Below are positions 5,582-62,753 of a stretch of 63,506 nt of DNA, piece after piece; position 1 is the stretch's first letter; each line of letters opens with the position of its first letter. The translations under genes and the position numbers were made by a program. Source of the DNA: a bacterium ADurb.Bin212 (GTDB lineage: Bacteria; Patescibacteriota; UBA1384; XYA2-FULL-43-10); the NCBI GenBank assembly GCA_002070055.1, contig MWCM01000006.1:1-63506 (forward strand), given 5' to 3'. The notes under the pieces were generated by a model that was given only the letters and a program-made list of their open reading frames with translations, was not told the DNA's origin and made no database searches.

Positions 5582-6232
5582 TTAAGACAAAAGTTGTTCA
5601 ACTTCTTTTAAATATTGTTTGGCAAGTTCGTAACTTTCATCTAATTCTTTGGCTTTGGCAAAAGCCTCTTTGGCGCTTAACAGTTTTGTTTTCCGATTGC
5701 TTTCCGACATCTGCACAATTCTGGCAGTTTGTAACCGTGCCAAACCTAAGTATGCCCAAGTTTCTTTGCTGTCTTTTTCCATTTCGAGTATTAGTTCTGT
5801 TTGTATCTCGGCTAATTGTGGTTCATTATCCTCTATCATTTTTTTGACTGTTTCTAGTCCTTCACTCACAGAAGAAGGGACTTTGTTGGCGGCAGCAAGC
5901 TGTTCAAGGTCTTTAATTGAATTTTTTTCTCTCAAAAAAGATTCAAGTTCTAAGAAATTGAGCTGAGCCTTGTTAGCCAGTTGGATTTTATTTTCAGCTT
6001 GGCAGCTTTTACATAGATAATCCGCTTTATGATACTCTACAATGGCCTCTAAATACTTTTTTTCTAGCAACAAGCTGTCGCCCTGAGCGGAAAAATTCTC
6101 CGCCATGTCTCTACGCAAGGGCAAAAGAGCAAAATACAAAACGGACACAAGCGCAGCTAAAGCGACAAGCCAAATAATAAATTTTTGATTTTTAATCTTT
6201 GACCCTGGCGAGGCCGTTTTGGTGCGGTTCAT
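5582..6232 (-). CDS. Membrane-anchored TPR-like/helical-repeat protein
   Basis: The track ORF is 5582..6307. The internal Met (MNRTKTASPGSKIKNQKFIIWLVALAALVSVLYFALLP) is preferred because the longer version overlaps the PAP2 gene by 116 nt. One N-terminal TM followed by TPR-like helices (YLEAIVEYHKADYL, AYLGLARLQ, AKEAFAKAKELD). The start remains uncertain. Confidence 0.55.
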   Translation of the reverse strand: MNRTKTASPGSKIKNQKFIIWLVALAALVSVLYFALLPLRRDMAENFSAQGDSLLLEKKYLEAIVEYHKADYLCKSCQAENKIQLANKAQLNFLELESFLREKNSIKDLEQLAAANKVPSSVSEGLETVKKMIEDNEPQLAEIQTELILEMEKDSKETWAYLGLARLQTARIVQMSESNRKTKLLSAKEAFAKAKELDESYELAKQYLKEVEQLLS

Positions 6233-6782
6233 ACCAAAATTTCTCCCATTTATGGACCATAATGTAGGATAAAATGCCGGAAGCTGTGCCCAGTAGCGCT
6301 CCGGCAATTACGTCGCTTGGGTAATGCAATCCGGCTCCTATGCGCGAAAGAGCTACCGCAATAGCAATAATAAGCAATGTTAAGCCCAATTTTTTATGTC
6401 CATATAGCAGAATTGATACGGCTATAGCAAATACTATGTAGGTGTGGCTAGAAGGGAAAGAGGCCATATCAACGGTAAATCTCTCTGGATTAGTGTTTAT
6501 GATGTCATCGGCATGCGCGATATATGGCCTGGGACGTTTCCAGAAGATGTAGATAGCCAAATCAATCATCCCAGCTATACCGATGGCAAAGAAAGAACAG
6601 ATTAAAGCGTTGATTCTTTTTGTCCATATGAGATATATAAAACTCAGAAACATAAGTACAATGCCGTATTTGGCAAAAAAAACATAAAATAATTGAACTT
6701 TATAATTCTTTATGCCCCAAAAATACATCGAATAAAGCCAACCGAAATCAATCGCTCTAATTTGATTTAATAAATTTTCCAT
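6192..6782 (-). CDS. PAP2-family (type 2) phosphatase, undecaprenyl-diphosphate/phosphatidic-acid phosphatase-like
   Basis: All three PAP2 motifs are present: KRPRP, PSSH and SRIGAGLHYPSD. Multiple TM helices. Confidence 0.85.
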   Translation of the reverse strand: MENLLNQIRAIDFGWLYSMYFWGIKNYKVQLFYVFFAKYGIVLMFLSFIYLIWTKRINALICSFFAIGIAGMIDLAIYIFWKRPRPYIAHADDIINTNPERFTVDMASFPSSHTYIVFAIAVSILLYGHKKLGLTLLIIAIAVALSRIGAGLHYPSDVIAGALLGTASGILSYIMVHKWEKFWYEPHQNGLARVKD

Positions 6783-6806
6783 AGCACCAATATAATAACA
6801 AGATAA

Positions 6807-6836
6807 TTGAGCAGTGTATATATTTTGTCGTATAAT
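6807..6836 (+). promoter_or_regulatory. Candidate promoter for the recombinase gene
   Basis: TTGAGC (6807-6812), an 18-nt spacer, then TATAAT (6831-6836). It lies about 57 nt upstream of the ATG at 6894. Confidence 0.4.
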
Positions 6837-6893
6837 ATTTGTGGGTAGCCAAAAATATTAAACCAAGAACCCAATAATAACATCGGGAGCAAA

Positions 6894-8201
6894 ATGAAAG
6901 ACCTGTGGCAGTTGAAAAGAGAATTTTTAGAGCATTGCGAGATAGAGAAGGGGCAATCAAAATTAACTGTTGATAATTATGGTAGATATTTGGATCGATT
7001 TTTGTCTTGGCTGGGGGAATTTAATGTAAACACAACCACAGATATACTCCACAGATCGACACAGATGGGGAAACAGAGCAATAGAGAAACAGAGGAAGGC
7101 ACAAATCAAGAAATTGGAATATTAGATAATCAAGCCATGAAAGAGCAAGAAAATAGAGGTGAAGCTACTAAAGGGCTGGGAGTTGATGAGATAATGACTA
7201 AAAAGCTAGCTCCTGAATTAATAACCGATGAAACTGTTAGACAATATCGACTATATATCAATCGTCTGAGCGCTCCCGATGGCGGTGAGCTTAAACTAAC
7301 TACTCAAAATCACCATGTTTTGGCTCTACGCGCTTTTTTGCGTTATCTTTTGTCGCGCGGAGTCACAGTTCTGCCTCCAGAGAAGATCTCTTTAGCCAGA
7401 ACCGGCGAAAGAGAGATCAATTTTTTGAACAAGGAGGAGTATATTAGATTGCTTAAATCTCCAGACACTAAAGATGCCGAGGGTATCAGAGACCGGGCGG
7501 TATTGGAAACTTTATTTTCAACCGGCATGAGGGTATCTGAGATAGTAAACTGCAATATCGGTAGACTGAACCTGGAGCAGGGAGAAATATCTATTTTAGG
7601 TAAAGGTAAAAAGCTCAGAGTGGTGTTTTTATCGGAGAGCGCATGTTATTGGCTGGTTAAATATCTGATAATGAGAGGAGCGGTAATAGATCAAAAATCA
7701 AAAATCAAAAATCAAAAAGAAGATAACAAGGAGATTATCTCCACTGATTTAATCTACGGATCGGCACAGATCGGAGAAGTGTCTAACAGCAATATTGCTA
7801 ACGATTTATCAATACAACAATTTAGCAATTTATCTGTTTTAGATTCCTATAAAAATGATCCGCTATTTTTATCGTCTCGTGGCAATAGAATGAATGCCCG
7901 AGCCGTAGAAAGATTGATTAAAAAATACAAAAGGCTGGCGGGGATATCTAAGGACATCTCTCCTCACTCCTTGCGTCACACTTTTGCTACTGATTTATTA
8001 AGCGGTGGTGCAGATATTCGCAGTGTTCAATCTATGCTTGGCCACTCAAATCTCTCCACCACGCAAATTTACACTCATGTTACAGATCAGCATCTTCGTG
8101 AGGTGCACCGTCGTTTTCACGCGGCCAGCAACGAAGACTCCGCCACTGACGCAAGAAGTGCGGATTCCAGTTTTGATGATCAAAATAAAAAGGATCATTA
8201 A
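6894..8201 (+). CDS. Tyrosine recombinase, XerC/XerD family, with three low-complexity insertions and a C-terminal tail
   Basis: Catalytic signature is intact: RDRAVLETLFSTGMRVSE (Arg), HSLRHTFAT (HxxR) and LGHSNLSTTQIYTHV (His/Tyr). Core-binding N-terminus (FLEHCEIEKGQSKLTVDNYGRYLDRF). Extra segments lie at about aa 45-105 and 263-320. Confidence 0.85.
   Translation: MKDLWQLKREFLEHCEIEKGQSKLTVDNYGRYLDRFLSWLGEFNVNTTTDILHRSTQMGKQSNRETEEGTNQEIGILDNQAMKEQENRGEATKGLGVDEIMTKKLAPELITDETVRQYRLYINRLSAPDGGELKLTTQNHHVLALRAFLRYLLSRGVTVLPPEKISLARTGEREINFLNKEEYIRLLKSPDTKDAEGIRDRAVLETLFSTGMRVSEIVNCNIGRLNLEQGEISILGKGKKLRVVFLSESACYWLVKYLIMRGAVIDQKSKIKNQKEDNKEIISTDLIYGSAQIGEVSNSNIANDLSIQQFSNLSVLDSYKNDPLFLSSRGNRMNARAVERLIKKYKRLAGISKDISPHSLRHTFATDLLSGGADIRSVQSMLGHSNLSTTQIYTHVTDQHLREVHRRFHAASNEDSATDARSADSSFDDQNKKDH
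7690..7717 (+). repeat. Heptanucleotide tandem repeat (ATCAAAA)x4 in-frame inside the recombinase gene
   Basis: Read directly: atcaaaa atcaaaa atcaaaa atcaaaa. It encodes KSKIKNQK. Confidence 0.95.
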
Positions 8202-8208
8202 AGATCCT
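8182..8208 (-). terminator. Rho-independent terminator for the minus-strand small gene, overlapping the 3' end of the recombinase CDS
   Basis: Stem AGGATC/GATCCT (8191-8196 / 8203-8208) with a 6-nt loop. On the minus strand it is followed by TTTTATTTT (complement of 8182-8190). Confidence 0.55.
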
Positions 8209-8245
8209 AAATAAAGTGAGTTCAGCGAATGGGTGTTTTTACTGC

Positions 8246-8413
8246 TTAAGAGTTGTTGCGCAAGTCATCCCACATATCAAAGACCTCTACTTCGCAGAGA
8301 TCCGGTTGGGCGGCGCAGGCTGAAATTTCACTTTTTATCTGTTCTATACGTTGAAGTTCCGAGTTAATCGGGATTTCATCTAACTTATCTACTTTTTTGA
8401 TTTTTAATTGCAT
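8246..8413 (-). CDS. 55-aa acidic small protein with its own promoter and terminator
   Basis: Below the track cut-off. My translation: MQLKIKKVDKLDEIPINSELQRIEQIKSEISACAAQPDLCEVEVFDMWDDLRNNS*. Near-consensus promoter upstream and a hairpin plus U-tract downstream. No obvious SD. Confidence 0.55.
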   Translation of the reverse strand: MQLKIKKVDKLDEIPINSELQRIEQIKSEISACAAQPDLCEVEVFDMWDDLRNNS

Positions 8414-8428
8414 TTTGTTTTTGTGTTT

Positions 8429-8454
8429 CTAACCGCCTAATTTTTGGCGATTAG
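8429..8454 (-). promoter_or_regulatory. Inverted repeat overlapping the predicted +1 of the small-gene promoter (operator or 5' hairpin)
   Basis: CTAACCGCC (8429-8437), an 8-nt loop, then GGCGATTAG (8446-8454). In minus-strand RNA it is fully paired, with one G-U pair. Confidence 0.3.
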
Positions 8455-8457
8455 GTC

Positions 8458-8486
8458 ATTGTATCAAAAAAACGCCTCTATGTCAA
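8458..8486 (-). promoter_or_regulatory. Near-consensus sigma70 promoter (minus strand)
   Basis: Minus strand reads TTGACA (8486-8481), a 17-nt spacer, then TACAAT (8463-8458). Confidence 0.55.
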
Positions 8487-8524
8487 GGCATTTTGTGGTA
8501 TTGGTGGTTGATTTATAGCTGGGG

Positions 8525-8807: not shown

Positions 8808-10130
8808 TTAAGCCTTAAATCTTTGTTCGAGTTCTTTTTTTACGATCTTTCTGTCTGAAAATGGCACAAATTCGTGTAGCCCGACAGCCATGACCTCTTC
8901 GGCACCTTTACCGGTAATTATTACCACGTCATCCTTTTTAGCTTCACGAATCGCTTTTTTAATGGCCTGTTCACGATCAATCACTTTCCAATAATTTCTG
9001 TTTAATCTCCATTGATGTTTATTGCCTCCGCGGTGTATGCCCTCTGCTACCTCTTCCATGATTGTTAAAGGGTCTTCATCATAAGGATCCTCGTCTGTAA
9101 ATACTACTAAGTCGGCGTAACCACCGGCGAGTGCTCCCATAATTGGGCGCTTGGTTTTGTCGCGACGTCCTGTTGCGCCAAGTACGGCAATCATTCGTCC
9201 ACCACTCTTTTTGAGTCCATCTTTTATCGTTTCATATACATTTTTTAGAGAGTCAGGGTTATGTGCATAATCTACAATAACTGTAAAATCTTGTTTTTGG
9301 GAAACCCTAACTGATTCCATTCTGCCGGCAATACTTAAAATATTTTCCAGCCCCTGTTTGATAATATTGGGGTCGATCTCCAAGGCAACGCCAACACAAA
9401 AGGTAGCAAGGGCATTTAAGATATTAAATATGCCAGGCAGATTTAGATTAATTGTAATTTGCCCGTTGTCGTAAGCGGCTGTAAAGGTAGAGGAGTCAGG
9501 AGCGGTTAAAATCTTTCTGGCAACCGCGCCATGTTCCGGAGGATTCTTGACTGAATATAAGAACTTCTCCTTGCCAGGCACGGAGTAGAATTTGTTCCAG
9601 TTGGCGTCATCTCTGTTTATTATAAAAATAGCCTGCGGATGATCTTTAAAAACTTTTAACTTTGCATTTAAATAGTTCTCTTTGGTTTTATGGTATTCCA
9701 TGTGCTCGTGAGAGAGATTGGTGTAAACTAAAATATCGTAGTTTATACCGTGGATGCGGTTTTGATCTATGGCCTGGGAGGTGGTTTCAATTATGGCGTA
9801 TTCGCAACCTTCAATCACCGCTTGTTTCAAAAATCTTTGCAGAACGTTAGATGGAGGAGTGGTTACCCACTTATCTTTGGTGGTGTGGGGGATGATTTTT
9901 TCACCAAACTTGGTGTTAATGGTGGTTTCCATGGCGTTTTTAATGCCTGCGGCATCCAAAACACTGGCGATCATATTGCAAACTGTAGTTTTGCCTTTAG
10001 TACCGGTAACACCAATTACTTTTATTTTTCGGCTTGGTTTACCGTATTTTAAAACTGCCAAATTGGCCTCAACTTTGTGAAGCTTATTTTTAGTCTCTTG
10101 GGATAAAATTTTTGATAAGTATTTTTTCAT
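8808..10130 (-). CDS. Mur ligase family protein, MurE-like, apparently lacking the usual N-terminal domain
   Basis: P-loop VIGVTGTKGKTT. Also TNLSHEHMEYH, DYAHNPDS and VLGATGRRDKTKRP...VVFTDEDPYDEDP, as in MurE-type ligases. Only about 35 residues precede the P-loop. 440 aa. Confidence 0.85.
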   Translation of the reverse strand: MKKYLSKILSQETKNKLHKVEANLAVLKYGKPSRKIKVIGVTGTKGKTTVCNMIASVLDAAGIKNAMETTINTKFGEKIIPHTTKDKWVTTPPSNVLQRFLKQAVIEGCEYAIIETTSQAIDQNRIHGINYDILVYTNLSHEHMEYHKTKENYLNAKLKVFKDHPQAIFIINRDDANWNKFYSVPGKEKFLYSVKNPPEHGAVARKILTAPDSSTFTAAYDNGQITINLNLPGIFNILNALATFCVGVALEIDPNIIKQGLENILSIAGRMESVRVSQKQDFTVIVDYAHNPDSLKNVYETIKDGLKKSGGRMIAVLGATGRRDKTKRPIMGALAGGYADLVVFTDEDPYDEDPLTIMEEVAEGIHRGGNKHQWRLNRNYWKVIDREQAIKKAIREAKKDDVVIITGKGAEEVMAVGLHEFVPFSDRKIVKKELEQRFKA

Positions 10131-11077
10131 TTCCTTCTGATTTTTTCTGCGATTTTAAATAGATTATACTCAAATGGCCGCAGTATTAAATCCCAACTTC
10201 CAGCCAACCGGATTTCTTGCCCGCCAAACTTCTTTTTAAAATCTGTCACCCCTCGCCATGGGTGATTGGGTTCATTGGGCGGGGCGATACCGAAAAAGTC
10301 ATATTCGGTGCAGCCTCGTGATTTTGCCTCGCGAATTGCTGTCCACTGCAAAAGGTAGGGAGCCATCAAATTCTTGTATTCGTCGCTTGAGCCGCCAAAC
10401 AGATATATTGCCTTGTCTTGGTAGAAAGAAATTATCACCGAAGCAATGGGGATTTGATTTGCCTTCTTGTCTTCCGCATCATTCTTTATTCTTAATTCGT
10501 TATTCTGTTTCACAACGGCAGTAAACACCTTACAATAGCCTTTTGTGCTCAGTATGTCAATTAATTTTTGGAAATAAGCTGAGTTGCGATGGCTGATATT
10601 GTGTCTCTGAGACATGCTGGAATAGAGCTTGAAAAAGTTCTTGGTGTCTTTTTCCTCGACAATATTGATCTGATTCTTTTGTGCGACTTTAATATTGTAG
10701 CGACCCTTTTGCTTCATTTGTTTAAGTATTTCGTCTTCTGGTTTACTTATATCCAGAACAAGTGTGTGTTCCGGTTGCATCTCCTCAAATGCTTTTTTAA
10801 AAAGTGAATGATGATTGATGAATGATGAATTATGGAGCGGGACATCGAGCTCTAGCCTATAAAATATTGACCTATTATCACGAGCTATATCTTTAATTTG
10901 TTCCAAAAATCTGTTATTCATTATTCGTTCTTCGTTATTCACCATGGGGCTATACAGCATGTTTCTCCCCATGGGTAGACTTTTTTGTAACACCAAAATA
11001 TCATTGATACGATATGACTTTTGATATCCGGTGGCCAATTTAAAAGCTTCCCACTCGGGGCTTTGGAATAAATTCAT
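10127..11077 (-). CDS. FemAB/FemX-family peptidoglycan interpeptide-bridge aminoacyltransferase
   Basis: N-terminal FQSPEWEAFK, C-terminal GVTDFKKKFGG and the overall length (316 aa) are typical of the FemAB family. A 4-nt overlap couples it to the Mur ligase. Confidence 0.8.
   Translation of the reverse strand: MNLFQSPEWEAFKLATGYQKSYRINDILVLQKSLPMGRNMLYSPMVNNEERIMNNRFLEQIKDIARDNRSIFYRLELDVPLHNSSFINHHSLFKKAFEEMQPEHTLVLDISKPEDEILKQMKQKGRYNIKVAQKNQINIVEEKDTKNFFKLYSSMSQRHNISHRNSAYFQKLIDILSTKGYCKVFTAVVKQNNELRIKNDAEDKKANQIPIASVIISFYQDKAIYLFGGSSDEYKNLMAPYLLQWTAIREAKSRGCTEYDFFGIAPPNEPNHPWRGVTDFKKKFGGQEIRLAGSWDLILRPFEYNLFKIAEKIRRK
10481..10508 (-). repeat. Heptad-periodic run inside femX-like gene
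   Basis: Plus strand: attcttt attctta attcgtt attctgt. The sense strand encodes NNELRIKND and contains the 13-mer GAATTAAGAATAA, shared with 56414-56426 and 61920-61932. Confidence 0.85.
10805..10832 (-). repeat. Heptad tandem repeat (TGAATGA-like x4) inside femX-like gene
   Basis: tgaatga tgattga tgaatga tgaatta. The sense strand encodes NSSFINHHS. Confidence 0.9.
10914..10941 (-). repeat. Heptad tandem repeat (TTATTCA-like x4) inside femX-like gene
   Basis: ttattca ttattcg ttcttcg ttattca. The sense strand encodes NNEERIMNN. Confidence 0.9.
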
Positions 11078-11100
11078 GAGTTCATTTTAACAAATTTATC

Positions 11101-11141
11101 GTGAAAAGAGAAAGGCCGCCACGGTGGCACCGAGGCGGCCT
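11101..11141 (-). terminator. Rho-independent terminator after the 69-aa ORF
   Basis: AGGCCGCC (11113-11120) pairs with GGCGGCCT (11134-11141). On the minus strand it is followed by TTCTCTTTTCAC. Confidence 0.6.
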
Positions 11142-11169
11142 CCTGCTCCCTGAGCGGCTATGCGTGATG

Positions 11170-11379
11170 TTAATGGCGTGGTGCGAACAGTGGAACGTTC
11201 GGCGGCAGGTTGTGGCGTGTCTTGTTGTGCTCGAAGACTATGCAGGTTCCATCTTGGCATTGTTGGTAGAACCGGCAGTCCGTTGGCACATCTCCCAACA
11301 TGACCGTGACCGAATCGCCGCAGACTATATCTTTTGCGTCGAGCGGGTCGCCCATACCCAATCCAGTAGCTTCGCTCAT
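11170..11379 (-). CDS. Candidate 69-aa Cys-containing small protein in a GC-rich island
   Basis: AGGAGGA plus a 6-nt spacer plus ATG. Translation: MSEATGLGMGDPLDAKDIVCGDSVTVMLGDVPTDCRFYQQCQDGTCIVFEHNKTRHNLPPNVPLFAPRH. It has its own terminator. About 55-60% GC against the AT-rich flanks. Confidence 0.45.
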   Translation of the reverse strand: MSEATGLGMGDPLDAKDIVCGDSVTVMLGDVPTDCRFYQQCQDGTCIVFEHNKTRHNLPPNVPLFAPRH

Positions 11380-11479
11380 TGTGTTTCCTCCTCTCTGGGA
11401 GAGATCTGTTTCTGTCCTTATTTTAATAACAGTTTAAGAAATAGAAAAGTGGATAAATTTGTGTTAGAATTCGTTAGTT

Positions 11480-12679
11480 ATGAAATATGAACATAATGAT
11501 CAAATTAAAATACTTGCTATCGAAACTTCGTGCGATGAAACCAGCGTGGCGGTTATTGGTGTAGAAAATGGAAATCCAGTGATTTTGTCGAATGTTGTAA
11601 GCTCACAAATTGATTTACACGCAAAAACGGGCGGGGTGGTGCCGGAAGTTGCTTCGCGTGCGCACATGGAGGCAATGATACCTGTAATTAAAGAAGCCCT
11701 ATTAAGGGCTAATTCAAAATTTAAAATTCAAAATTTAAAATTCAATGAAAATTCTAAATTAGAAATTGAAAATTCTCTTAAAGAGATAACACATGTTGCG
11801 GTGACGGCTGGACCGGGTTTGATTGGTTCACTGCTTGTTGGATTTAACACTGCAAAATCGCTTGCCTACGCGCTGGATCTCCCGATTATTCCGGTAAATC
11901 ATATCGAAGGACATATATACTCGGCATTAGCTGAGAAATTTTCAATTTTCAATTTTCAATTTTCAAATAAATCACATATTCAAAATTCAAGATCTGTTAC
12001 CTGCAACCTATCACCCGCAACCTTTCCCATTTTAGCCCTTACGGTTTCTGGAGGACATACATCGCTGACATTAGTCCACAATCATGGTGAATACGAAAAC
12101 ATCGGGCAAACTTTGGATGATGCGGCGGGGGAGGCTTTTGATAAAGTGGCGAAACTACTGGGGCTCGGTTACCCTGGTGGCCCGGAAGTATCAAAAATTG
12201 CAAAACAGTATCGAAATACAAAAAATGGTGATGATACTATTGAACTGCCACTACCCTTGTCTAGAGATAATTCCTGTAATTTTTCATTCTCCGGATTGAA
12301 AACGGCAGTCATAAATGTTTGGCGGAAAGCGGAGGAAGAATATGAAAATCAGCCGGAAAAAATTGAGGAATTTAAAGCTGAGTTGGCGGCAAAGTTCGAG
12401 GAAACTGCGATCGCCCACTTAATCGATAAAACGCTAAAAGCGTTGAGGGCAACTGGTGCTAAGAATGTTGTACTAGCCGGAGGCGTTTCGGCAAACAATT
12501 ATTTAAGAGAGAATATGCAAAAAGAGTTGAAAGGCTTGGGTGTTGCGTTGTTAATGCCACCAATGGAATTGTGTGGCGATAATGCCGCTATGATTGGGCT
12601 AGCCGCTTATTATCATATTATTAGGGAAAACGTCTCAAATTGGCATGAGATCAAGATAGATTCCAATTTCAGGCTATAG
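11480..12679 (+). CDS. tsaD: tRNA N6-adenosine threonylcarbamoyltransferase TsaD (Kae1/Gcp family) with two heptad-repeat insertions
   Basis: ILAIETSCDETS, NHIEGH metal motif, VSGGHTSL, GYPGGP, LAGGVSAN and CGDNAAMIG. Confidence 0.92.
   Translation: MKYEHNDQIKILAIETSCDETSVAVIGVENGNPVILSNVVSSQIDLHAKTGGVVPEVASRAHMEAMIPVIKEALLRANSKFKIQNLKFNENSKLEIENSLKEITHVAVTAGPGLIGSLLVGFNTAKSLAYALDLPIIPVNHIEGHIYSALAEKFSIFNFQFSNKSHIQNSRSVTCNLSPATFPILALTVSGGHTSLTLVHNHGEYENIGQTLDDAAGEAFDKVAKLLGLGYPGGPEVSKIAKQYRNTKNGDDTIELPLPLSRDNSCNFSFSGLKTAVINVWRKAEEEYENQPEKIEEFKAELAAKFEETAIAHLIDKTLKALRATGAKNVVLAGGVSANNYLRENMQKELKGLGVALLMPPMELCGDNAAMIGLAAYYHIIRENVSNWHEIKIDSNFRL
11711..11780 (+). repeat. Ten consecutive heptads in-frame in tsaD (insertion 1)
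   Basis: aattcaa aatttaa aattcaa aatttaa aattcaa tgaaaat tctaaat tagaaat tgaaaat tctctta. Encodes NSKFKIQNLKFNENSKLEIENSL. Confidence 0.9.
11937..12027 (+). repeat. Thirteen consecutive heptads in-frame in tsaD (insertion 2)
   Basis: aattttc x4, then aaataaa tcacata ttcaaaa ttcaaga tctgtta cctgcaa cctatca cccgcaa cctttcc. Encodes FSIFNFQFSNKSHIQNSRSVTCNLSPAT, lying between the HIEGH and SGGHT motifs. Confidence 0.9.
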
Positions 12680-25324: not shown

Positions 25325-25345
25325 TATTTGAACGAAGGAGATTAC

Positions 25346-25424
25346 AACACAAATCTTTACACAAATAAACACAAATGGGGACAAGGTTATAACACAAATC
25401 TTTACACAAATAAACAAAAATGAG
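25346..25424. repeat. Two 34-nt direct repeats (45-nt period) built from ACACAAAT octamers, in a convergent intergenic region
   Basis: aacacaaatctttacacaaataaaca occurs at 25346-25371 and identically at 25391-25416. Both extend to about 34 nt with 2 mismatches. Confidence 0.9.
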
Positions 25425-25476
25425 TACCACAGCGAAAAAGAGATTAATATAGAAAACGATTTTAGCTCTTTCGTTA

Positions 25477-28517: not shown

Positions 28518-28531
28518 TATACCTCCGAGTT

Positions 28532-28566
28532 AATTTAAAATTTAAAATTTTCAATTTAAAATAAAT
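28532..28566. repeat. Intergenic heptad run (AATTTAA family)
   Basis: aatttaa aatttaa aattttc aatttaa aataaat. Further on, caagaaacaataaccaaa (28592-28609) is identical to 62047-62064 inside the GT4 gene. Confidence 0.85.
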
Positions 28567-28724
28567 GTTTGCAAAAATGACTATCAATAATCAAGAAACA
28601 ATAACCAAAACCATTTTACGATAGAACTACATCTCGCGTCAATTTTAATGGTTCCAATTATGTTGATTTTAGGCTAGAATTATTATGTTATTTATTGAGC
28701 AGAATAATTCACATTTGGAGAACA

Positions 28725-34182: not shown

Positions 34183-35297
34183 TTATTGTCCTGGGTCATG
34201 CCAGTCTTATTAACGAAAAGATATATGAGGCACCGGTCAATACTTATGTTGAGACACTAATTAGACAGAAAAGAGATTTTGTTTTCATTCGGCACTTTAT
34301 TGATGGTAATTTGAAATCAACAGTATACTGCTACAAAAAAGGTCAATTAGTATCACAGAAGAAGCTTTTTATAATCTCAAGGATATCTCCATTAAGATAT
34401 TTTACGGAAATTGTCTCAAGTTTTTTGTACCTTTTAAGATACAAAAATGCGGAAGTTATGATTGCCGCAGATCCGTTGAACGCCTACACAGGATTATTAT
34501 TAAAGAGATTCCGGAGGTTAAAGAAGCTGATATTTGTAACTTGTGATTATTCGGAGAGACGCTTCGACAATTCTATATTAAATTGGATATTCTTCAAAGT
34601 TGATAGGATGGCTGCCTTAGGATCAGACCAAATATGGAATGTTTCCAAGAGGATTCAAGAGGTTAGAAGATCGATGGGGTTTTCAGATAAGAAGAATATC
34701 TTGGTGCCGAATGTTCCTTCTTCTAATTATAAGCAATACGTAGACAACAAGAGAAATAAATTCTGTATGGTGACGCTCGGATTATTAGGCGATCAACTTG
34801 AGTTTGATTATTTATTTGAAGCAATCAAGGATCTACTCAAAAAATATCCCAACCTTATTTTAAAAATTATCGGAAATGGTCCCAAAGAAGAGTATTTGCA
34901 TCAAAAAGCAAAGAAAATGGCCATAGAAGAAAGTATAATTTTTACCGGTCATCTTGAGCACGACAAAGCCTTAGAACATATATCAAAATCTGGCATCGGA
35001 CTGGCCCTGTACAATGGTAATTGGAATTTCAACTTTTTTGGAGACAGTATGAAGTGCCGTGAATTTTTCTGTTTCGGGCTACCTGTTATAACGACTGACA
35101 CACACTCAACCGTCGAAGATATAAGAGAAAATAATGCTGGCATCGTGGTTGAAATGAATAAAAAAAGCTATATTGGCGCCGTGGAAGAAATACTAAATAA
35201 CTACGGCTTATACAGCAAAAACTCTTCTGTTTTAGCCAATAAATATGAAGATATACATAATAAGCTTCTCAAAAGAATAATTGGTAAAGATGTCTAG
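34179..35297 (+). CDS. GT4-family (GT-B fold) glycosyltransferase
   Basis: LKIIGNGPKEEYL...IIFTGHL, FGDSMKCREFFCFGLPVITTD. ATGA overlap with the upstream gene. Confidence 0.75.
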   Translation: MIIVLGHASLINEKIYEAPVNTYVETLIRQKRDFVFIRHFIDGNLKSTVYCYKKGQLVSQKKLFIISRISPLRYFTEIVSSFLYLLRYKNAEVMIAADPLNAYTGLLLKRFRRLKKLIFVTCDYSERRFDNSILNWIFFKVDRMAALGSDQIWNVSKRIQEVRRSMGFSDKKNILVPNVPSSNYKQYVDNKRNKFCMVTLGLLGDQLEFDYLFEAIKDLLKKYPNLILKIIGNGPKEEYLHQKAKKMAIEESIIFTGHLEHDKALEHISKSGIGLALYNGNWNFNFFGDSMKCREFFCFGLPVITTDTHSTVEDIRENNAGIVVEMNKKSYIGAVEEILNNYGLYSKNSSVLANKYEDIHNKLLKRIIGKDV

Positions 35298-55834: not shown

Positions 55835-57154
55835 GTGAAAAATGATTATTTTAATAAAATAGTATATTTAATTGTTGCTCTTTTGCCGCTAGAAAGACTG
55901 CTAACTTTTGATCTATTTGGCTACACCGTTAAGCCGGCATATTTATTGGCAATTATTTATGTTATTTTTGTGGTTTATAAATACTTCAGAAAAACTTTAT
56001 TCCGAAATTTAGTGCCAATAATTATGCAAAAAATTAAGAAAGAAGAGCTATGGACGCTTATCTTAGTCCTTTGGTCATTTTTGTCTTGTTTGTGGTCTTT
56101 GGCGCCAAGACGAACTTTGGTCATGTCTGCTCTATTAGCCTTTATGGTTTTGATGTTTATGCTGTTGCGTCGTAAGCTGGATTTCGAGATGCGCCAAAAG
56201 ATACTACACATAATTACAAACACCGGGATTGCGGTGTCGGTGTTTGCAATTATTCAGTTTTTTCTCGAGCATTATTTTAGTCATAGCGCTGCTTTACTAA
56301 GAGAGCAATATGGTAGCCAGCTCTTTGGTTTTGCCCGCCCCCAAGCCACATTTTTAGAGCCGCTTTATTTGGCAAACTTTTTGCTGTTCCCAATTTTTAT
56401 CGAACTGAATAAAGAATTAAGAATAATGAATAAAGGCGAAAACGGTAATATTCAATATTCAATATTCAATATTCAAATTTTGAAAAGAAATTTAGCTTTG
56501 GTTTTGATGCTAGTAGCGTTTATTGTAACTCTCTCGAGGGGAGCATATTTGGGTTTAACGGTTGGTTTTGTAGCATTTGTGACAACCTTGGCTTTTGTCA
56601 AAGCAATCAATTGGCAGAAACTTGGAGGCATAATTGTTGCCACATTAATATCAATTTTTGTTTCTCTTGTTATAATTTATGCTGTGTCTGGCACAACAGG
56701 TGTAAATAACTTTGTTGGTCACGCCATAAAAACATCAGATCTTGCTCCAACTAATGAGATCGAGGCTTTGCAAAATAGGAGGTTGTCGGGAGAAGTTGCC
56801 TTTCAAAATTTTGTTCAGAATCCTATCTTTGGAAGCGGGCTAGCTTCATTTGGTGCCCTGCCACAGTTCAAAGAGTTGCGAAAAATTGGTGAGTGGCAAA
56901 CGGTTAACAATCAATATCTGGAAATTGCTACCGAACTGGGGCTCGTTGGCCTGTTGCTATTTTTAGCAGTAGTTTATTCAGGTATCAGGTATCAGGTATC
57001 AGGTATTAGAAAGGGAAAATACGATAATATCGTATTTTTGGGCTGGATAGTATCGGTTATAGTGCAGTATTTTACTTTCTCTTCAATATATCTTTTATAT
57101 CTTTGGGTATTTTTGGCGATTATTTGGCCTATAAACGAAGAGAAACAAGCTTAA
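55835..57154 (+). CDS. O-antigen ligase/polymerase family (Wzy/WaaL-like) membrane protein 1, with heptad-repeat insertions
   Basis: About 11 TM helices and the TLSRGAYLG motif. GTG start in the track. Confidence 0.75.
   Translation: MKNDYFNKIVYLIVALLPLERLLTFDLFGYTVKPAYLLAIIYVIFVVYKYFRKTLFRNLVPIIMQKIKKEELWTLILVLWSFLSCLWSLAPRRTLVMSALLAFMVLMFMLLRRKLDFEMRQKILHIITNTGIAVSVFAIIQFFLEHYFSHSAALLREQYGSQLFGFARPQATFLEPLYLANFLLFPIFIELNKELRIMNKGENGNIQYSIFNIQILKRNLALVLMLVAFIVTLSRGAYLGLTVGFVAFVTTLAFVKAINWQKLGGIIVATLISIFVSLVIIYAVSGTTGVNNFVGHAIKTSDLAPTNEIEALQNRRLSGEVAFQNFVQNPIFGSGLASFGALPQFKELRKIGEWQTVNNQYLEIATELGLVGLLLFLAVVYSGIRYQVSGIRKGKYDNIVFLGWIVSVIVQYFTFSSIYLLYLWVFLAIIWPINEEKQA
56407..56483 (+). repeat. 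Eleven consecutive heptads in-frame (GAATAAA family x4, then TATTCAA x4)
   Basis: gaataaa gaattaa gaataat gaataaa ggcgaaa acggtaa tattcaa x4 attttga. Encodes NKELRIMNKGENGNIQYSIFNIQIL. Confidence 0.92.
56981..57008 (+). repeat. Heptad tandem repeat (GGTATCA)x3 plus a variant unit
   Basis: ggtatca ggtatca ggtatca ggtatta. Encodes GIRYQVSGIR. Confidence 0.95.
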
Positions 57155-57156
57155 AG

Positions 57157-58688: not shown

Positions 58689-60074
58689 TTGATTGCAGGC
58701 GTCAAATTGCTTGAAAAGAAAAATGTCAAAATAGTTGGTTATAAAACGTTGGATTTATTACTTGGTCTAACGATATTTTTGATACCGTTCTATTTTATCA
58801 GATTCAAAATTTTGGGCATACCAACCAATATCTTTGAGCTTGGAGTTTTGTTGTTGCTAATAGCTACGCTAATGCAAGCAACAATAACCAAAAAACAATA
58901 TCCAGTTAATAACCAAACTCAAAAAGATCAAAACCACAAAACCTTTAACCATTATTCTTTATTTATAATTCTTTTTTTCTTGTCGTTTCTAATGGGGTCA
59001 TCAAAGGCTGGTTATAGCCTTGATTCATTGGGTATTGTCAAAAGTTACTTTGTTGTGCCAGTGGTATTGGGTTTAGCTATCAGCTATCAGCTATCAGCCT
59101 TTAGGGGACACATAAACCCAAAACCTATAACCCAAAACCTGAAACCTATTTTCTTTGGGTTTTATCTCTCATTGCTAATTGTTTCTCTTTGGGCGATTTT
59201 GCAAAAGTTTGGCATACTTACAACACTTTTCTATCAAGTGGGCGATATATCATTCAACCAATATCTTGGAGACAATTTCCGCGCTTTTGGACCATTTGAG
59301 TCACCAAATTATTTGGCGATGTATATCGTGCCGATTTTGTTTTTAACGATCGGGATAATGCAAAATGCAAAATGCAAAATGCAAAAAATTTGGAAGGTAA
59401 TGTTTAATCTAACTTTGATTTTGCCGTTGATTGCGTTGATCTTTACTAAATCAAGGGCTGGAATTATAGCTTTAGCGGTATCATTGTCACTACTCTTAAT
59501 TTTCTGGATTTACCAAAACCTCAAATCCAAAGCGGGAAAAGTTATTATAATTTCTGGTAGCTTAATTCTGTATTCTGTATTCTTAATTCTAGTTACAAAG
59601 TACGGTTTGCGTCCGGAAACTGATTCTGCCAGATTCGAAATATACTCATATTCATGGCAGATGATCGTCGAAAACCCGATCTTTGGTATCGGTTTGGGCG
59701 GTTTTCAAAACTATTTATCCGCTATACCAATATCTGTTTCATTTAGGGAGATAATACTTCCATATGCTTATCACCCTCACAATCTATACATGTCATTATG
59801 GTTAAATGTTGGTTTGCTGGGGCTAATATCATTTATTGGCATAGTAGTATGTGTTATTGGGCAATATTTTGTAAACAATCCCGGCAAAAAGAGGCTCAAT
59901 AACGCTGGAATTTTTATGATTTTGGCCTTAGTTTCGATTTTAATACATGGTATTTTGGATACCACATATTTCAAAAACGATCTTTCGGCAATTTTTTGGG
60001 TGACAATAGCCTTAATATTAACACAAACCGATTTAAAATTGGCAGGTCGCGCCAGTAGTTTAAGCGATAAATGA
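58689..60074 (+). CDS. O-antigen ligase/polymerase family membrane protein 2, with heptad-repeat insertions
   Basis: About 12 TM helices and the TKSRAGIIAL motif. TTG start in the track. Confidence 0.72.
   Translation: MIAGVKLLEKKNVKIVGYKTLDLLLGLTIFLIPFYFIRFKILGIPTNIFELGVLLLLIATLMQATITKKQYPVNNQTQKDQNHKTFNHYSLFIILFFLSFLMGSSKAGYSLDSLGIVKSYFVVPVVLGLAISYQLSAFRGHINPKPITQNLKPIFFGFYLSLLIVSLWAILQKFGILTTLFYQVGDISFNQYLGDNFRAFGPFESPNYLAMYIVPILFLTIGIMQNAKCKMQKIWKVMFNLTLILPLIALIFTKSRAGIIALAVSLSLLLIFWIYQNLKSKAGKVIIISGSLILYSVFLILVTKYGLRPETDSARFEIYSYSWQMIVENPIFGIGLGGFQNYLSAIPISVSFREIILPYAYHPHNLYMSLWLNVGLLGLISFIGIVVCVIGQYFVNNPGKKRLNNAGIFMILALVSILIHGILDTTYFKNDLSAIFWVTIALILTQTDLKLAGRASSLSDK
59075..59151 (+). 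repeat. Eleven consecutive heptads in-frame (AGCTATC x3, then CCCAAAA/CCTATAA family)
   Basis: agctatc x3 agccttt aggggac acataaa cccaaaa cctataa cccaaaa cctgaaa cctattt. Encodes ISYQLSAFRGHINPKPITQNLKPI. Confidence 0.92.
59357..59384 (+). repeat. Heptad tandem repeat (AATGCAA)x4 in-frame
   Basis: aatgcaa x4. Encodes MQNAKCKMQK. The same unit recurs intergenically at 62691-62704. Confidence 0.95.
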
Positions 60075-61312
60075 AAACTTTATATCAAAAATATTTTCTG
60101 GAACAAAGAGCCGTCATAATTTTCCTGTTTTTATTAATTGCTTTTTTGCCTTTTAGCTCGTGGCTGGTTAGTCTAACCGGAATAACACAGATATCCCTTA
60201 TTCGTGATGTGCTTTTATTCTTAGTATTATTATCTGCCTTGCCTGTGCTACTCCGTAATAAAAAACTAGAACATAAGCCCCAATTTCTAGCTGGATTATT
60301 ATTCGTTGCATGGGCGCTTTTATCTGTAATATGGCGGGAGCCGAGCTTAGAGCAGTGGGTTAGGGGTCTGCGTTTTACCTTGCCACCAATTGTGCTGTTT
60401 TTGATTTTGAGCCAAATCAAAATACCATTAAGGCGTCTTGCCTTTCTGGTAAATGCTGTGTGCTTGGCGGCGATTCTGATTGCTATTACGGCTTTGCTCG
60501 ATGTTTTTAATTCTCCTCTACCCTTAACCACATCTTTATCCGGATCGGGCACTTTGGAAAGTGCTCATTATGTAGGGCTACTTATGATAAAACGTGCGCA
60601 AGGGATAATGGCCGGACCGAATGCACTAGGATTATTCTTGCTACCGGCCTTTGCTATAAGTATAACTTGGCCTAGCAAGTCACTGTGGCCCAAAATACTA
60701 TCATTAGTATTAGCAATGCTTATTGTTTTAACTTTTTCAAGAAGCGCTCTAATAGGTTTGCTGGTAATTGTTTTGTTACTCTTTTGGCAAAAAGCTAAAG
60801 ACAAAATCGGCTCCATAAAAACCATTATCATCTCTTTGGCACTACTGCTTTTGTTGGTTTGCGCCGGCTTTGTAATCAATAAAACAACTTGGGGGAAGCA
60901 GGTAATAAGCCACAACTCCTCAAGCAGCTTGAGACTCGAACAATACCAACGTATTTGGCAACAGAAATATAACATTGGTTTAATCGGCAGGGGCTTGGGT
61001 ACAGCCGGTCCATCTTCAATAAATAGGTTAGATGGGGGAGAGAATCACTGGACGGAGAATGTTTATTTAGATGTTTTTGAGGAGCTAGGGCTTGTTGGTA
61101 CAATAATTTTTATAATATTTATTATTGTTTTGATAGTAAAAACGAGCAAAATTAATAACAATTTAGGTAGAGCTACAAGTCTTGCTTTGTGGGCATTTGC
61201 CATTTCCGGCATTTTTATAAACATTTACACCGGTCAGGCCGGTTTTTGGTATGTAATGCTTTTATTGGGCTTGGCAATAAATACTCAAAATAACAACAAG
61301 GATACAAAATAA
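60071..61312 (+). CDS. O-antigen ligase/polymerase family membrane protein 3
   Basis: ATGA overlap with the upstream gene. About 11 TM helices and the TFSRSALIGL motif. Confidence 0.78.
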   Translation: MKTLYQKYFLEQRAVIIFLFLLIAFLPFSSWLVSLTGITQISLIRDVLLFLVLLSALPVLLRNKKLEHKPQFLAGLLFVAWALLSVIWREPSLEQWVRGLRFTLPPIVLFLILSQIKIPLRRLAFLVNAVCLAAILIAITALLDVFNSPLPLTTSLSGSGTLESAHYVGLLMIKRAQGIMAGPNALGLFLLPAFAISITWPSKSLWPKILSLVLAMLIVLTFSRSALIGLLVIVLLLFWQKAKDKIGSIKTIIISLALLLLLVCAGFVINKTTWGKQVISHNSSSSLRLEQYQRIWQQKYNIGLIGRGLGTAGPSSINRLDGGENHWTENVYLDVFEELGLVGTIIFIIFIIVLIVKTSKINNNLGRATSLALWAFAISGIFINIYTGQAGFWYVMLLLGLAINTQNNNKDTK

Positions 61313-61313
61313 T

Positions 61314-62669
61314 ATGAAAAGAATATTAATTGATGGTAGGTTCATTGGAGTGGGTGATTCGATGACCCGCTACTGTCTGGAAATTGTGAAGGGAATTTTG
61401 GATCAGGACAAAGATAATGAGTATACTTTGTTGATTCGGCCAGAAGGAGAGAAAATTTTGAAGGTGACATCCACAGAAATTCTTCACAGAAAGGGCACAG
61501 AAAGTGTCATTGCGAGGAGCGGTTTTGCGACGTGGCAATCTAATAATCTGACAATAAAAGTTCTGGATATTCCGCATTATTCATTGGGGGAGCAAACGAA
61601 GTTGCTTAGTTATCTAAATAAAGAAAAATTTGATTTAGTGCATTTTATCCAATTCAATCATCCAATTCTGTATAGAGGCAAATATGTTGTCACAATCCAC
61701 GATTTAACGCTTTTTGGGCATTTATATCGCGAAAAACTTCATAAAAAAATCGCATTCGATAAGGTAATGCGTTCGGCAGTTAATAAATCGGCCAAAATCA
61801 TCACCGTATCGGAAACCAGTAAAAATGATATTATAGATAATTATCATGTTGATCCAAATAAAATCGCTGTGACATATTTGGGAGTGGACGGGAAGTACAA
61901 CTGCAGAATTAAGAATGATGAATTAAGAATAAAGCAGTTTAAAGAGAAGCACGGGATTGTGGGGGATTATATTTTATATACTGGGATGTGGAAGAAGCAT
62001 AAAAATTTAATTAGGCTACTAAAAGCCTTCGAAAAGTTTCAAGAAACAAGAAACAATAACCAAACAAATTCTAATTATCAAATCCCAAATATTCAATTGG
62101 TTCTAGTAGGGAAGGTGGATAAAAACGAACCGGAAGTGATAAAAACGATTGAGGAAATTAACAAGCGTTTTTGTCATCCTGAGCGAGCAGAGCGAGTCGA
62201 AGGATCTTCAAACAAAATCAATAACAAAATATCCAATATCCAATATCCAACATCCAATGAAATTTCAAATTCCCAACCTAATAAGCTAAGGCCTAATGCC
62301 TACCTTCCAGTTATTACTACTGGCTTTGTGGAAGAGGAGGAGCTACCTATTTCCTATGCTGGAGCGCTATTTTACGTTATTCCCTCGCTCTCCGAGGGAT
62401 TCGGTCTACCGCCCTTAGAAGCTATGGCCTGTGGCACACCTGTCATTAGTTCAAATATTAGCGCCATGCCGGAGATTTTGGGCGATGCTGCTCTGTATTT
62501 TGACCCCTATGATGTTTGTGATATTGCTGAAAAAATGAGGCAAATGGCAGATAATACTAATCTAAGGGAAGATTACTCCCAAAAAGGATTAGAACAAGCC
62601 GGTAAGTATAGCTGGGAGAATACTGCTAAAAGAACGCTGGTTGTTTATAAGGAGCTGCTTGATAGCTAA
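61314..62669 (+). CDS. GT4-family glycosyltransferase carrying several inserted repeat elements
   Basis: C-terminal [46 protein letters not shown] (E-x7-E). N-terminal RILIDGRF. 451 aa, about 90 aa longer than typical family members (recollection). Confidence 0.88.
61506..61548 (+). repeat. Short dispersed element, in-frame coding copy (related to 25477-25513)
   Basis: gtcattgcgaggagcggttttgcgacgtggcaatctaataatc. Encodes [15 protein letters not shown]. The termini ATTGC...GCAAT are inverted. Confidence 0.7.
61905..61932 (+). repeat. Heptad run (AGAATTA family) in-frame
   Basis: agaatta agaatga tgaatta agaataa. Encodes [10 protein letters not shown]. It shares GAATTAAGAATAA with 10488-10500 (reverse complement) and 56414-56426. 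Confidence 0.88.
62040..62095 (+). repeat. Eight heptads in-frame (CAAGAAA family)
   Basis: caagaaa caagaaa caataac caaacaa attctaa ttatcaa atcccaa atattca. Encodes [18 protein letters not shown]. Confidence 0.88.
62181..62219 (+). repeat. Short GC-richer palindrome-ended element in-frame (encodes [12 protein letters not shown])
   Basis: ttgtcatcctgagcgagcagagcgagtcgaaggatcttc. The terminal ATCCT...AGGAT is inverted. I recall similar gtcatcctgagcg...gtcgaaggatc motifs being dispersed in other bacterial genomes, but this is unverified. Confidence 0.5.
62220..62310 (+). repeat. Thirteen consecutive heptads in-frame (ATCCAAT x4 core)
   Basis: aaacaaa atcaata acaaaat atccaat atccaat atccaac atccaat gaaattt caaattc ccaacct aataagc taaggcc taatgcc. 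Encodes [30 protein letters not shown]. Confidence 0.92.
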
Positions 62670-62690
62670 AGCAATGAACCAAACTTTTAT

Positions 62691-62753
62691 AATGCAAAAT
62701 GCGATATGCGAAATAATGTAAGGAATAAATTAAGGAATTAAAGAATAAAGAAA
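62691..62753. repeat. Intergenic heptad run (AATGCAA family, then AAGGAAT/AAAGAAT)
   Basis: aatgcaa aatgcga tatgcga aataatg taaggaa taaatta aggaatt aaagaat aaagaaa. Confidence 0.85.

Follow-up and report, generated by a model that had tools for sequence, protein, structure and literature searches.

Heptanucleotide arrays embedded in frame in conserved genes of a Patescibacteria genome: candidate copies of dispersed, frame-neutral mini-elements

How can a tandem repeat with a seven-nucleotide unit persist inside essential genes? Repeats whose unit is not a multiple of three are normally purged from coding DNA, since each change in unit number shifts the reading frame. The question is raised by a 63,506-nt stretch of DNA (hereafter the window: positions 1 to 63,506 of contig MWCM01000006.1, assembly GCA_002070055.1, bacterium ADurb.Bin212), in which runs of heptamers interrupt the genes for TsaD, valyl-tRNA synthetase (ValRS) and other conserved proteins. 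A preliminary description, made from the letters of the window, had reported such runs at more than 20 sites. On balance, the analysis presented here leads us to favour the view that they are copies of dispersed, frame-neutral heptamer-array mini-elements, filtered by reading frame, by freedom from stop codons and by position in loops.

The periodicity itself clearly exceeds chance. Counting matches at lag p within 21-nt windows and scoring them against shuffled sequence, we found 10 regions with at least 18 of 21 matches at lag 7 and none in 30 dinucleotide-preserving block shuffles; at this threshold the other periods from 4 to 13 gave no region, period 14 gave five and period 15 two. Against shuffles of codon triplets within 300-nt blocks, period 7 gave 25 regions at 15/21 or more (1.6 expected), 20 at 16/21 or more (0.1 expected) and 15 at 17/21 or more (0 expected), so that period-7 arrays, at 20-25 sites, are roughly 15-200 times commoner than in shuffled sequence. 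Apart from period 7, strong enrichment over codon shuffles was confined to the harmonic period 14; period 8 showed a small excess at the two loosest thresholds (7 regions against 1.1 at 15/21 or more, 4 against 0.2 at 16/21 or more), and a comparable excess appeared at no other period from 5 to 11. Tandem Repeats Finder listed about 25 period-7 arrays, spanning 6181-62258, in line with the number of sites first reported, and all the heptamers named at that time are present where they had been placed. The run lengths of 3 to 13 units given then were too generous, however, the longest run having about 9.7 units (11711-11775), and of the intergenic runs the one at 28.5 kb was confirmed whereas the one at 62686-62756 is weak and drifts to period 8.

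Most of the arrays are coding. With a threshold of 16/21, 18 of the 20 regions lie in open reading frames (ORFs) of genes identified by Pfam and two are intergenic (28529-28610); since 93% of the window is ORF, coding DNA is not depleted of arrays. The host genes proposed from the sequence are all borne out by their Pfam matches (Table 1). All 18 coding arrays are in frame and free of stop codons in the frame of the host, with a joint probability of about 1e-9 in composition-matched shuffles. This upholds the earlier claim that coding copies are stop-free, although the A+T content of the runs covers 55-94% rather than the 75-85% first given.

Within the host proteins, from TsaD, ValRS and the XerD-like recombinase to FemAB, the two Wzy-like proteins and GT4, the arrays encode additional sequence between conserved motifs, as had been proposed and as both solved structures and orthologue alignments bear out. 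None of eight bacterial TsaD sequences with solved structures has anything to match residues ~73-93 and 154-180 of the TsaD encoded here, residues 259-315 of the XerD-like recombinase (57 residues) face about seven residues in Escherichia coli XerD, and ValRS residues 442-470 and 713-759 are insertions relative to Thermus thermophilus ValRS. The alignments of TsaD and ValRS further show a few insertion hot spots common to relatives, at which length and sequence are lineage-specific: close homologues of TsaD vary in length between 348 and 581 residues, and many orthologues lack an insertion at the array sites. Related genomes do carry arrays at the same position, the ValRS hot spot after RIPVWY being occupied by period-7 arrays in the window and in two other loci (L001 and L003), each with different units. 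In an AlphaFold2 model of TsaD (mean pLDDT, the predicted local distance difference test, 79), residues 155-178 fall below a pLDDT of 50; within the first insertion (77-99), the ten residues 81-90 average about 52. For this one modelled protein, the array-encoded segment is predicted to be disordered or a surface loop.

The arrays fall into families whose members are dispersed, which we call F1 to F6. Five of them (F1, F3, F4, F5 and F6) have 2-5 copies each within the window, in both orientations. F1 is found in TsaD, as a diverged inverted copy in ValRS and as a degenerate intergenic copy at 28.5 kb, while F3 (ATCAAAA) is found in the recombinase and in ValRS, the two being 97% identical over 30 nt. 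F4 (GAATWAW units, peptide ELRIKND) occurs twice in FemAB and once each in the first Wzy-like gene and the GT4 glycosyltransferase gene, and antisense in the second Wzy-like gene; F5 lies in the GT4 gene and at 28.6 kb, and F6 (AATGCAA) in the second Wzy-like gene and at 62.7 kb. Copies of one family are 4.5 kb (F1), 8 kb (F3) and 3.3 kb (F6) apart, and coding-strand units share a loose CA(A/G)...T(T/C) pattern.

F1 carries most of the argument. It consists of (AATTTTC)x4.3 followed by AAAYAAATCNCAAATYCAAAAT, and its DNA, AAATTTTCAATTTTCAATTTTCAATTTTCAAAYAAATCNCAAATYCAAAAT, recurs in frame in other genes on separate metagenome contigs. Many of the loci concerned (L083-L101) were retrieved in a TsaD-seeded metagenome scan through peptide patterns including FNFQFSNK and QNLKFNEN. 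Copies in genes for a MiaB-like radical-SAM enzyme, KsgA, a LigB-family protein and an RluD-type pseudouridine synthase are 91-98% identical over 51-55 nt, a copy in a class I tRNA synthetase gene is 97% identical to that of the window over 37 nt, and F1 also stands at three different TsaD positions in other contigs. The KsgA host belongs to the Parcubacteria group, a class of the candidate phyla radiation (CPR) that differs from that of the Berkelbacteria-like window genome. Because the conserved part includes an imperfect-repeat tail, convergence is not credible, and to account for F1 copies so nearly identical in different CPR classes, either horizontal spread or sequence-specific machinery is needed. 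Alignment of six F1 copies revealed a sharp left boundary, a fuzzy right one and no evident duplication of the target, and a scan of viral contigs for F1 gave no matches. F2 (AATTYAAAATTTAAAAYTCAAAATTTAAAATTCAATGAAAATTCT), which forms the first TsaD insertion here, is 95.6% identical over 45 nt to a ValRS insertion in another locus (L096).

A 7-nt period visits all three codon phases in every 21 nt, so that a stop-free unit gives the same 7-residue periodic peptide in any frame. For F1 this frame neutrality is shown directly, as its reading is KFSIFNFQFSNKSQI in one set of hosts and GIFNFQFSIFKQIQ in another, so that at least two frames are used. The antisense of AATTTTC is GAAAATT, in which TGA falls in every third unit; in the antisense F1 copy of ValRS, a 1-nt insertion (an extra T) yields TGT where an in-frame TGA would have stood, and so resets the phase, and in L093 an antisense copy is limited to two perfect units at most. 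AATTTCC, a variant that is stop-free on both strands, was found antisense and intact. Intergenic array copies carry stop codons. The position in frame, the freedom from stops, the removal of TGA in ValRS and the two-frame use of F1 thus support the earlier proposal that the runs are translated and under selection. The selection would be of a limited kind, though: judged from sequence, the stop-free pattern reads as survivorship filtering, which shows read-through and not benefit.

Array size is as distinctive as frame. In 391 kb of CPR DNA we counted 74 exact period-7 runs, made of 45 different units. Their lengths peak at 30 nt (16 runs), with five runs of 29 nt, three of 31 nt, one of 32 nt and none longer. 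These lengths correspond to 4.1-4.4 units, or ten codons, and their sharp mode at 29-30 nt does not resemble a broad, roughly geometric distribution. All 19 sense-oriented coding copies of F1 have 4.3 units, while of six non-coding-looking copies (five scored as such, together with L085, reassigned by eye to a TsaD 5' leader) four have 3.3 units, one about 3 and one 4.3. In this small sample, 3.3-unit copies occur only where no frame must be kept.

The arrays also change fast. At one orthologous KsgA site, L098 has (AATTTTC)4 and L104 has (AATTTCC)4, with related tails and 83% identity in the flanking gene DNA, which implies that a single substitution was propagated through all four units. Two loci that are 96.6% identical (L084 and L088) carry AAAGTTC and AATCTCA arrays, respectively, at one TsaD site, and two that are 99.5% identical (L090 and L091) differ by a net in-frame +36 nt inside a heptamer region, not by single units. 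The KsgA gene of L098 (9194-10147) is itself a mosaic produced by recombination: at both ends it matches L105 with 90-100% identity, while its central ~240 nt, F1 array included, is 83% identical to L104 and less than 50% to L105. This mosaic indicates that homologous recombination moves array-bearing segments between lineages.

In the reading that we favour, the element would be a block of ~30-65 nt with about four tandem 7-nt units, often followed by a short decayed or non-periodic tail. Such blocks would spread by a copy-and-paste process and then be filtered by frame, stop codons and structural tolerance. Copies would persist only where their total length is a multiple of three, only in a stop-free orientation, or edited to be so, and only in a tolerant surface loop, linker or membrane segment, to be translated as low-complexity, mostly disordered loops. 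After insertion they evolve fast, through concerted homogenisation of units, in-frame indels between strains and exchange of segments by homologous recombination.

As for the copying step, our first guess would be templated copying, with another array as the template and heptamer microhomology as the seed; it might proceed by template switching or illegitimate recombination between arrays and possibly be helped by DNA uptake. We are led to it by the lack of transposon hallmarks, by the closeness of family copies and their occurrence in both orientations, by the fuzzy right ends, and by the first bases of F1, which resemble a native KsgA loop (KF..F..KLK). A dedicated transposase seems less likely, given that terminal inverted repeats, hairpins and clear target duplications are all missing. 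The DNA of F1, F2 and F3 folds no better than shuffles (z -0.6, 0 and not applicable, respectively), and the AATATTC array folds weakly (z -4.4) only because its unit is partly self-complementary. No candidate copying enzyme was found within the 83 kb of the genome that were covered (the 63.5-kb window and 20 kb of flanks); the genes met in this search were the XerD-like recombinase, itself an array host, type IV secretion-like genes, Fic/RhuM and a glycan cluster. A bolder proposal, which we put forward only tentatively, is that the arrays represent an undescribed class of frame-neutral mini mobile elements (~30-60 nt) that copy themselves between unrelated essential genes and CPR classes. 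Their 7-nt periodicity would then be an adaptation for survival in any frame, and a dedicated enzymatic mechanism, perhaps shared with the short tandemly repeated repetitive (STRR) sequences of cyanobacteria and the TAACTGA arrays of Beggiatoa, would regenerate about four copies from one unit.

Several points weigh against dispersed elements. We found no copying machinery, target-site duplication or defined right end. F1 is absent from 110 kb of unbiased Berkelbacteria-like loci (L001-L006), and the prevalence of F1 and F2, as well as the counts of sense and antisense copies, is biased by the retrieval of L083-L101 through peptide patterns. A 30-aa segment of the window's F1, a short low-complexity query, had no match at E<=0.001 among 1.84 billion representatives, and a 44-aa duplicated F1 peptide had none among 36 candidates; with queries so short and of such low complexity, neither result is informative. 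That the arrays are translated is something that we infer. Many of the 45 units are locus-specific, which would be expected of a local origin too; frame selection acting on slippage (1.3, 4.3 or 7.3 units), and not a fixed size, could lie behind the 29-30 nt mode; and the contrast between 3.3 and 4.3 units rests on five or six copies, one of them reclassified by eye.

The last of these points lead to the most serious rival, which we nevertheless consider unlikely: the ordinary dynamics of simple sequence repeats (SSRs). Here a 7-mer would be duplicated locally through microhomology and expanded by replication slippage, frame selection would leave only states of 3n+1 units visible, and shared units would reflect the composition and stop constraints of an AT-rich genome. 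Heptamer SSRs are the most over-represented class of long SSRs in many bacteria, with polymerase slippage as a proposed mechanism (Mrazek 2007, by the accounts in PMC4692102 and PMC4679880). The diversity of units in the 74 runs, the decayed variants and 14-nt super-periods, the excess of 3.3-unit states among non-coding-looking F1 copies (4/6, against 4.3 in coding ones) and the in-frame indels between strains would all agree with such dynamics, and with k=4 a length of 7k, extended by 1-4 nt of microhomology, would give the observed runs of 29-32 nt. SSR dynamics fail, however, to account for the conserved non-periodic tails of F1 and F2, for identities of 91-98% over 45-55 nt between unrelated genes of different CPR classes, and for inverted copies of one composite sequence 4.5 kb apart. 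Moreover, an essential gene present in one copy could extend its array from 1.3 to 4.3 units only through lethal out-of-frame intermediates or by one +21-nt event, and perfect 7.3-unit arrays are not seen. We regard plain slippage as a partial contributor that accounts for the decay, for the 14-nt super-periods and for the non-coding-looking copies with 3.3 units.

A second type of in-frame mini-insertion occurs in the same loops of relatives, in the form of short perfect palindromes (for example AACTCCCCCCAACCCCCTCTTAAATTAAGAGGGGGCGAGGGGGAGTT), with peptides such as CHSRESGNL..DPRVKPEDD and PPLKLRGGEG. We found these in KsgA of L105 (7577-8500; hairpin AACTCCCCC...GGGGGAGTT) and in ValRS of L003 and L096, and in TsaD of L089 (~9700-9750) one is nested inside a heptamer array. 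It could be argued that the heptamer arrays are by-products of these small palindromic elements, as accumulated target-site duplications or footprints. The shared hot spots and the nested case would agree with this, there would be a parallel in the small dispersed repeats that Elhai and colleagues reportedly found within tandem heptamers of Nostoc, and the loose CA(A/G)...T(T/C) pattern of the units could be a target preference. We find the idea doubtful: no palindromic element stands at any array of the window, accumulation of footprints predicts a variable copy number and not a ceiling at 4.3 units, and the conserved tails and the dispersal of whole arrays would be left unexplained.

Slightly more doubtful still is that selection favours the peptides themselves, the 7-residue periodic segments being functional linkers or interaction modules and the DNA periodicity a side effect. 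The recurrence of an identical peptide in many housekeeping enzymes could be taken in this sense, as could the fit of orientation to context, polar in soluble loops and hydrophobic (antisense F4) in a membrane protein. However, the same sequences are present in intergenic DNA with stop codons, F1 is read in different frames that give different tails, the segments are predicted to be disordered, and their sites are hypervariable between strains that are 97-99.5% identical and empty in many orthologues. Finally, an artefact of assembly or binning, which would have left chimeric or wrongly assembled low-complexity sequence in these metagenome-assembled genomes (MAGs), is barely credible, for although all data are short-read metagenome assemblies and one contig (L082) ends exactly at the AATTTTC array, the arrays, at 24-65 nt, are far below read length, lie in frame between conserved domains of one gene, recur in assemblies from many projects and assemblers and, in four cases, are reproduced exactly by that independent contig (ERZ795061). 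This contig (1802 nt) corresponds to window positions 10136-11937 with 99.9% identity, and its end at the first base of the array (11937) suggests that arrays can break low-coverage assemblies.

How do the arrays compare with known repeats? Their closest likeness is to the cyanobacterial STRR, reportedly described by Mazel and colleagues in 1990, and to long simple sequence repeats (LSSR), with which they share tandem 7-nt units, several unit families per genome and a dispersed distribution. Unlike STRR and LSSR, which are rich in intergenic DNA and depleted in ORFs, 18 of 20 arrays here are in ORFs of conserved genes; the host is a member of the Patescibacteria, whole arrays with their tails are common to unrelated genes, and the units are A/T-rich, not G-rich and not known to be among the named STRR units. 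The small dispersed repeats (SDR) of Nostoc punctiforme, which Elhai and colleagues are said to have found embedded in tandem heptamers in 2008, are likewise very small (<60 nt) dispersed elements tied to heptamer arrays, and the nested palindrome of L089 recalls them; but SDR are themselves hairpin elements of cyanobacteria, whereas here the heptamer arrays are the dispersed unit, lie in ORFs and have a CPR host. Rickettsia palindromic elements (RPE), according to what Ogata and colleagues reportedly showed in 2000, are palindromes of 100-150 bp that lie in frame in conserved genes and are translated as extra surface segments. They resemble our arrays as short, dispersed selfish repeats tolerated in frame at permissive sites of conserved genes, although the arrays are shorter (30-65 nt), non-palindromic and internally 7-periodic, and hence frame-neutral, which RPE are not.

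The coding repeats of Borgs are said to have unit lengths divisible by three; in this they differ from the present arrays, whose unit is of 7 nt, whose only codon-compatible period is the 21-nt super-period and whose frame is kept by total length. Borg tandem repeats create intrinsically disordered regions in ORFs (PMC9879509), and the two are alike as fast-evolving in-ORF tandem repeats that add disordered segments and vary from one close relative to the next. In Xanthomonas and Nostoc, G-rich heptamer arrays (GGGNATC) show the same preference for about four units and are intergenic and under-represented in ORFs (PMC4692102). TAACTGA direct repeats occur in Beggiatoaceae, cyanobacteria and Bacteroidetes, where horizontal spread is suspected and the mechanism is not known (MacGregor 2015, PMC4679880). 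They too are a single heptamer family found across distant lineages, with an orientation dictated by stop codons in the repeat. They are, however, essentially intergenic, as are 22 of the 24 Microcystis sets that were mapped, and often directly precede start codons, with copy numbers of 2 to 6 or more (PMC4679880), unlike arrays that lie inside essential genes and are capped at ~4.3 units. The arrays are therefore STRR-like, but they sit inside essential genes at a fixed, frame-preserving size and occur as composite elements common to unrelated genes and to different CPR classes. In the searchable literature we met with no account of heptamer arrays lying inside CPR genes, which agrees with the preliminary description, where they were compared with STRR, located in ORFs and held to be apparently undescribed.

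Table 1. Host genes and heptamer arrays of the window.
Feature	Position	Strand	Remarks
XerC/D-like recombinase	6894-8201		Pfam Phage_integrase
FemAB	10127-11077	-	Pfam FemAB
TsaD	11480-12679		Pfam TsaD
ValRS	14254-16689		Pfam tRNA-synt_1; 811 residues
Wzy-like gene 1	55835-57154		Pfam Wzy_C
Wzy-like gene 2	58689-60074		Pfam Wzy_C
GT4 glycosyltransferase	61314-62669		Pfam GT4
Weak array ATTTTTG x3	6172-6208	-	Reverse complement of the ATCAAAA family (F3); 88-91% complementary to 7682-7712; at the junction of a 216-aa gene (5582-6232) and the 3' end of a PAP2 gene
F3 array ATCAAAA x4.1	7681-7726	+	29 nt exact (7690-7718); XerC/D-like residues 263-278, within insertion 259-315
F4 array (GAATWAW units)	10477-10508	-	FemAB; peptide NNELRIKNDA
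TCATTCA-type array	10800-10838	-	FemAB; peptide NSSFINHHS; TGAATGA of the preliminary description at 10805-10834
F4 array	10909-10942	-	Near FemAB N-terminus; peptide NNEERIMNN; TTATTCA at 10914-10941
F2 element AATTCAAAATTTAAAATTCAAAATTTAAAATTCAATGAAAATTCT...	11708-11775	+	~9.7 units, 14-nt super-period; TsaD residues 77-99 (hot spot 1)
F1 element (AATTTTC)x4.3 + tail AAATAAATCACATATTCAAAATT	11931-11990	+	TsaD residues 151-170 (hot spot 2); AATTTTC at 11937-11966
Degenerate array GCTACTC x3.7	14398-14431	+	Window-specific N-terminal ValRS insertion; GCTACTC at 14400-14425
F3 array AAATCAA x4.4	15578-15619	+	ValRS residues 442-456, hot spot after RIPVWY; 97% over 30 nt to recombinase copy
Inverted diverged F1 copy	16462-16520	+	Insertion in ValRS anticodon-binding domain, residues ~737-756; 59 nt, 75% complementary to 11929-11987
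Mixed AATTTAA and AATTTTC units, tail AAATAAAT	28529-28565		Intergenic; F1/F2-like; contains stop codons
F5 copy ATCAATAATCAAGAAACAATAACCAAAACC	28580-28612		Intergenic
F4 array	56404-56436	+	Wzy-like gene 1; peptide LNKELRIMNKG
Array AATATTC x4.3	56440-56485	+	30 nt exact (56447-56476); Wzy-like gene 1, directly before Wzy_C domain
Array TCAGGTA x4.1	56973-57014	+	29 nt exact (56978-57006); Wzy-like gene 1, directly after Wzy_C domain
Array AGCTATC x3.4	59067-59106	+	24 nt exact (59075-59098); Wzy-like gene 2
Array AAACCTA x5, degenerate	59114-59148	+	14-nt super-period; Wzy-like gene 2
F6 array AATGCAA x4.3	59350-59391	+	30 nt exact (59357-59386); Wzy-like gene 2
Antisense F4 copy (ATTCTGT/ATTCTTA units)	59560-59594	+	Wzy-like gene 2; hydrophobic peptide SLILYSVFLILV
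F4 array	61905-61934	+	GT4 interdomain region
F5 copy CAAGAAACAAGAAACAATAACCAAACAA	62034-62067	+	GT4
Array AATATCC x4.4	62220-62261	+	GT4; AATATCC at 62228-62258
Decayed F6 (AATGCAA/AATGCGA), then F4-like AAGGAAT/AAAGAAT units	62686-62756		Intergenic; contains stop codons

Along the window the arrays are strongly clumped, at 6-17 kb and 55-63 kb, with just two of 20 in the 17.0-55.8 kb between (P=3e-6), and none lies in another 20 kb of contig JAKJEL010000001.1 (assembly GCA_022705445.1, a Berkelbacteria-like Patescibacteria MAG), of which the window forms part. The interval 17000-55800 is a 38-kb cell-surface glycan cluster (GT2, GT4, epimerases, a flippase and a CDP-glycerol glycerophosphotransferase) of lower GC content (33-37%), almost free of arrays between array-full flanks, and may be recently acquired DNA. 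A set of type IV secretion-like genes (TrbL/VirB6, PrgI, TraC-like, TraG-like ATPase), found at 305-5509 of the window and at 12862-18876 of L103, adjoins the array-rich block and carries no arrays itself. Inside the glycan cluster, the 300-nt segments 36974-37273 and 39084-39383, 2110 nt apart, are 100% identical; they belong to neighbouring ORFs (35281-37491 and 37463-39601), both without a Pfam match, and point to recent gene conversion between tandem paralogues or to assembly collapse. Between convergent genes at 25339-25427 there is a 44-nt direct repeat in two copies (22-nt unit AACACAAATCTTTACACAAATA x3.4), unrelated to the heptamer arrays. A GC-rich hairpin at 62790-62840, AGAGCCGCCCC...GGGGCGGCTCT, between the convergent GT4 gene and the 62858-63433 gene, resembles a bidirectional intrinsic terminator in its sequence. 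The window had no matches in Rfam and tRNA scans.

Beyond the window, unbiased CPR loci differ in their array density, from 0 (L004, L015) up to 18 per 22 kb (L002), with 26 of 40 arrays in long stop-free frames. In 1.23 Mb of control loci, mostly from Firmicutes, density is ~14 times lower than in the window. Long heptamer arrays of up to 17 units (for example GATTAGG/GACTAGG) also exist in Dialister, Megasphaera and some Clostridia MAGs (L075, at 6345-6466 and 11660-11743; L076, L049, L033 and L053), and in L053 the (GAAAATT)n and ATTTTGC arrays resemble F1 and F6. The closest relatives of the window's ValRS are in Candidatus Berkelbacteria and other Patescibacteria MAGs (66-48% identity), and those of its TsaD, where named, are Patescibacteria or Berkelbacteria; a cyanobacterial origin, which would make the arrays true STRR, was rejected on this ground. 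Relatives more than 90% identical to the window genome, for a comparison with empty sites, were not found in the collections, the best TsaD relative being 65% identical. We also rejected the idea that ValRS is split or frameshifted at the 16.5 kb array, as the 811-residue ORF ends like its CPR orthologues and the next ORF encodes a RhuM/Fic protein. The ValRS of the window and of related CPR bacteria have 707-881 residues and end shortly after the anticodon-binding domain, without the ~120-residue C-terminal extension of the aligned Firmicutes-type ValRS; the corresponding region of T. thermophilus ValRS is a coiled coil.

In summary, heptamer arrays of a fixed, frame-keeping size are as common inside essential genes here as the coding fraction predicts. 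In practical terms, these blocks can break assemblies and distort marker-gene alignments and phylogenies, and they could serve as strain-level markers. If they are indeed dispersed elements, they would provide a concrete source of the lineage-specific insertions that inflate conserved CPR proteins, such as TsaD, and a means by which genomes that are otherwise minimal could rapidly generate disordered loops. They would also open a fresh approach to a question now 35 years old, namely how heptamer arrays, STRR and their relatives included, arise and spread, because the coding context imposes readable constraints of frame, stop codons and orientation that intergenic arrays lack.

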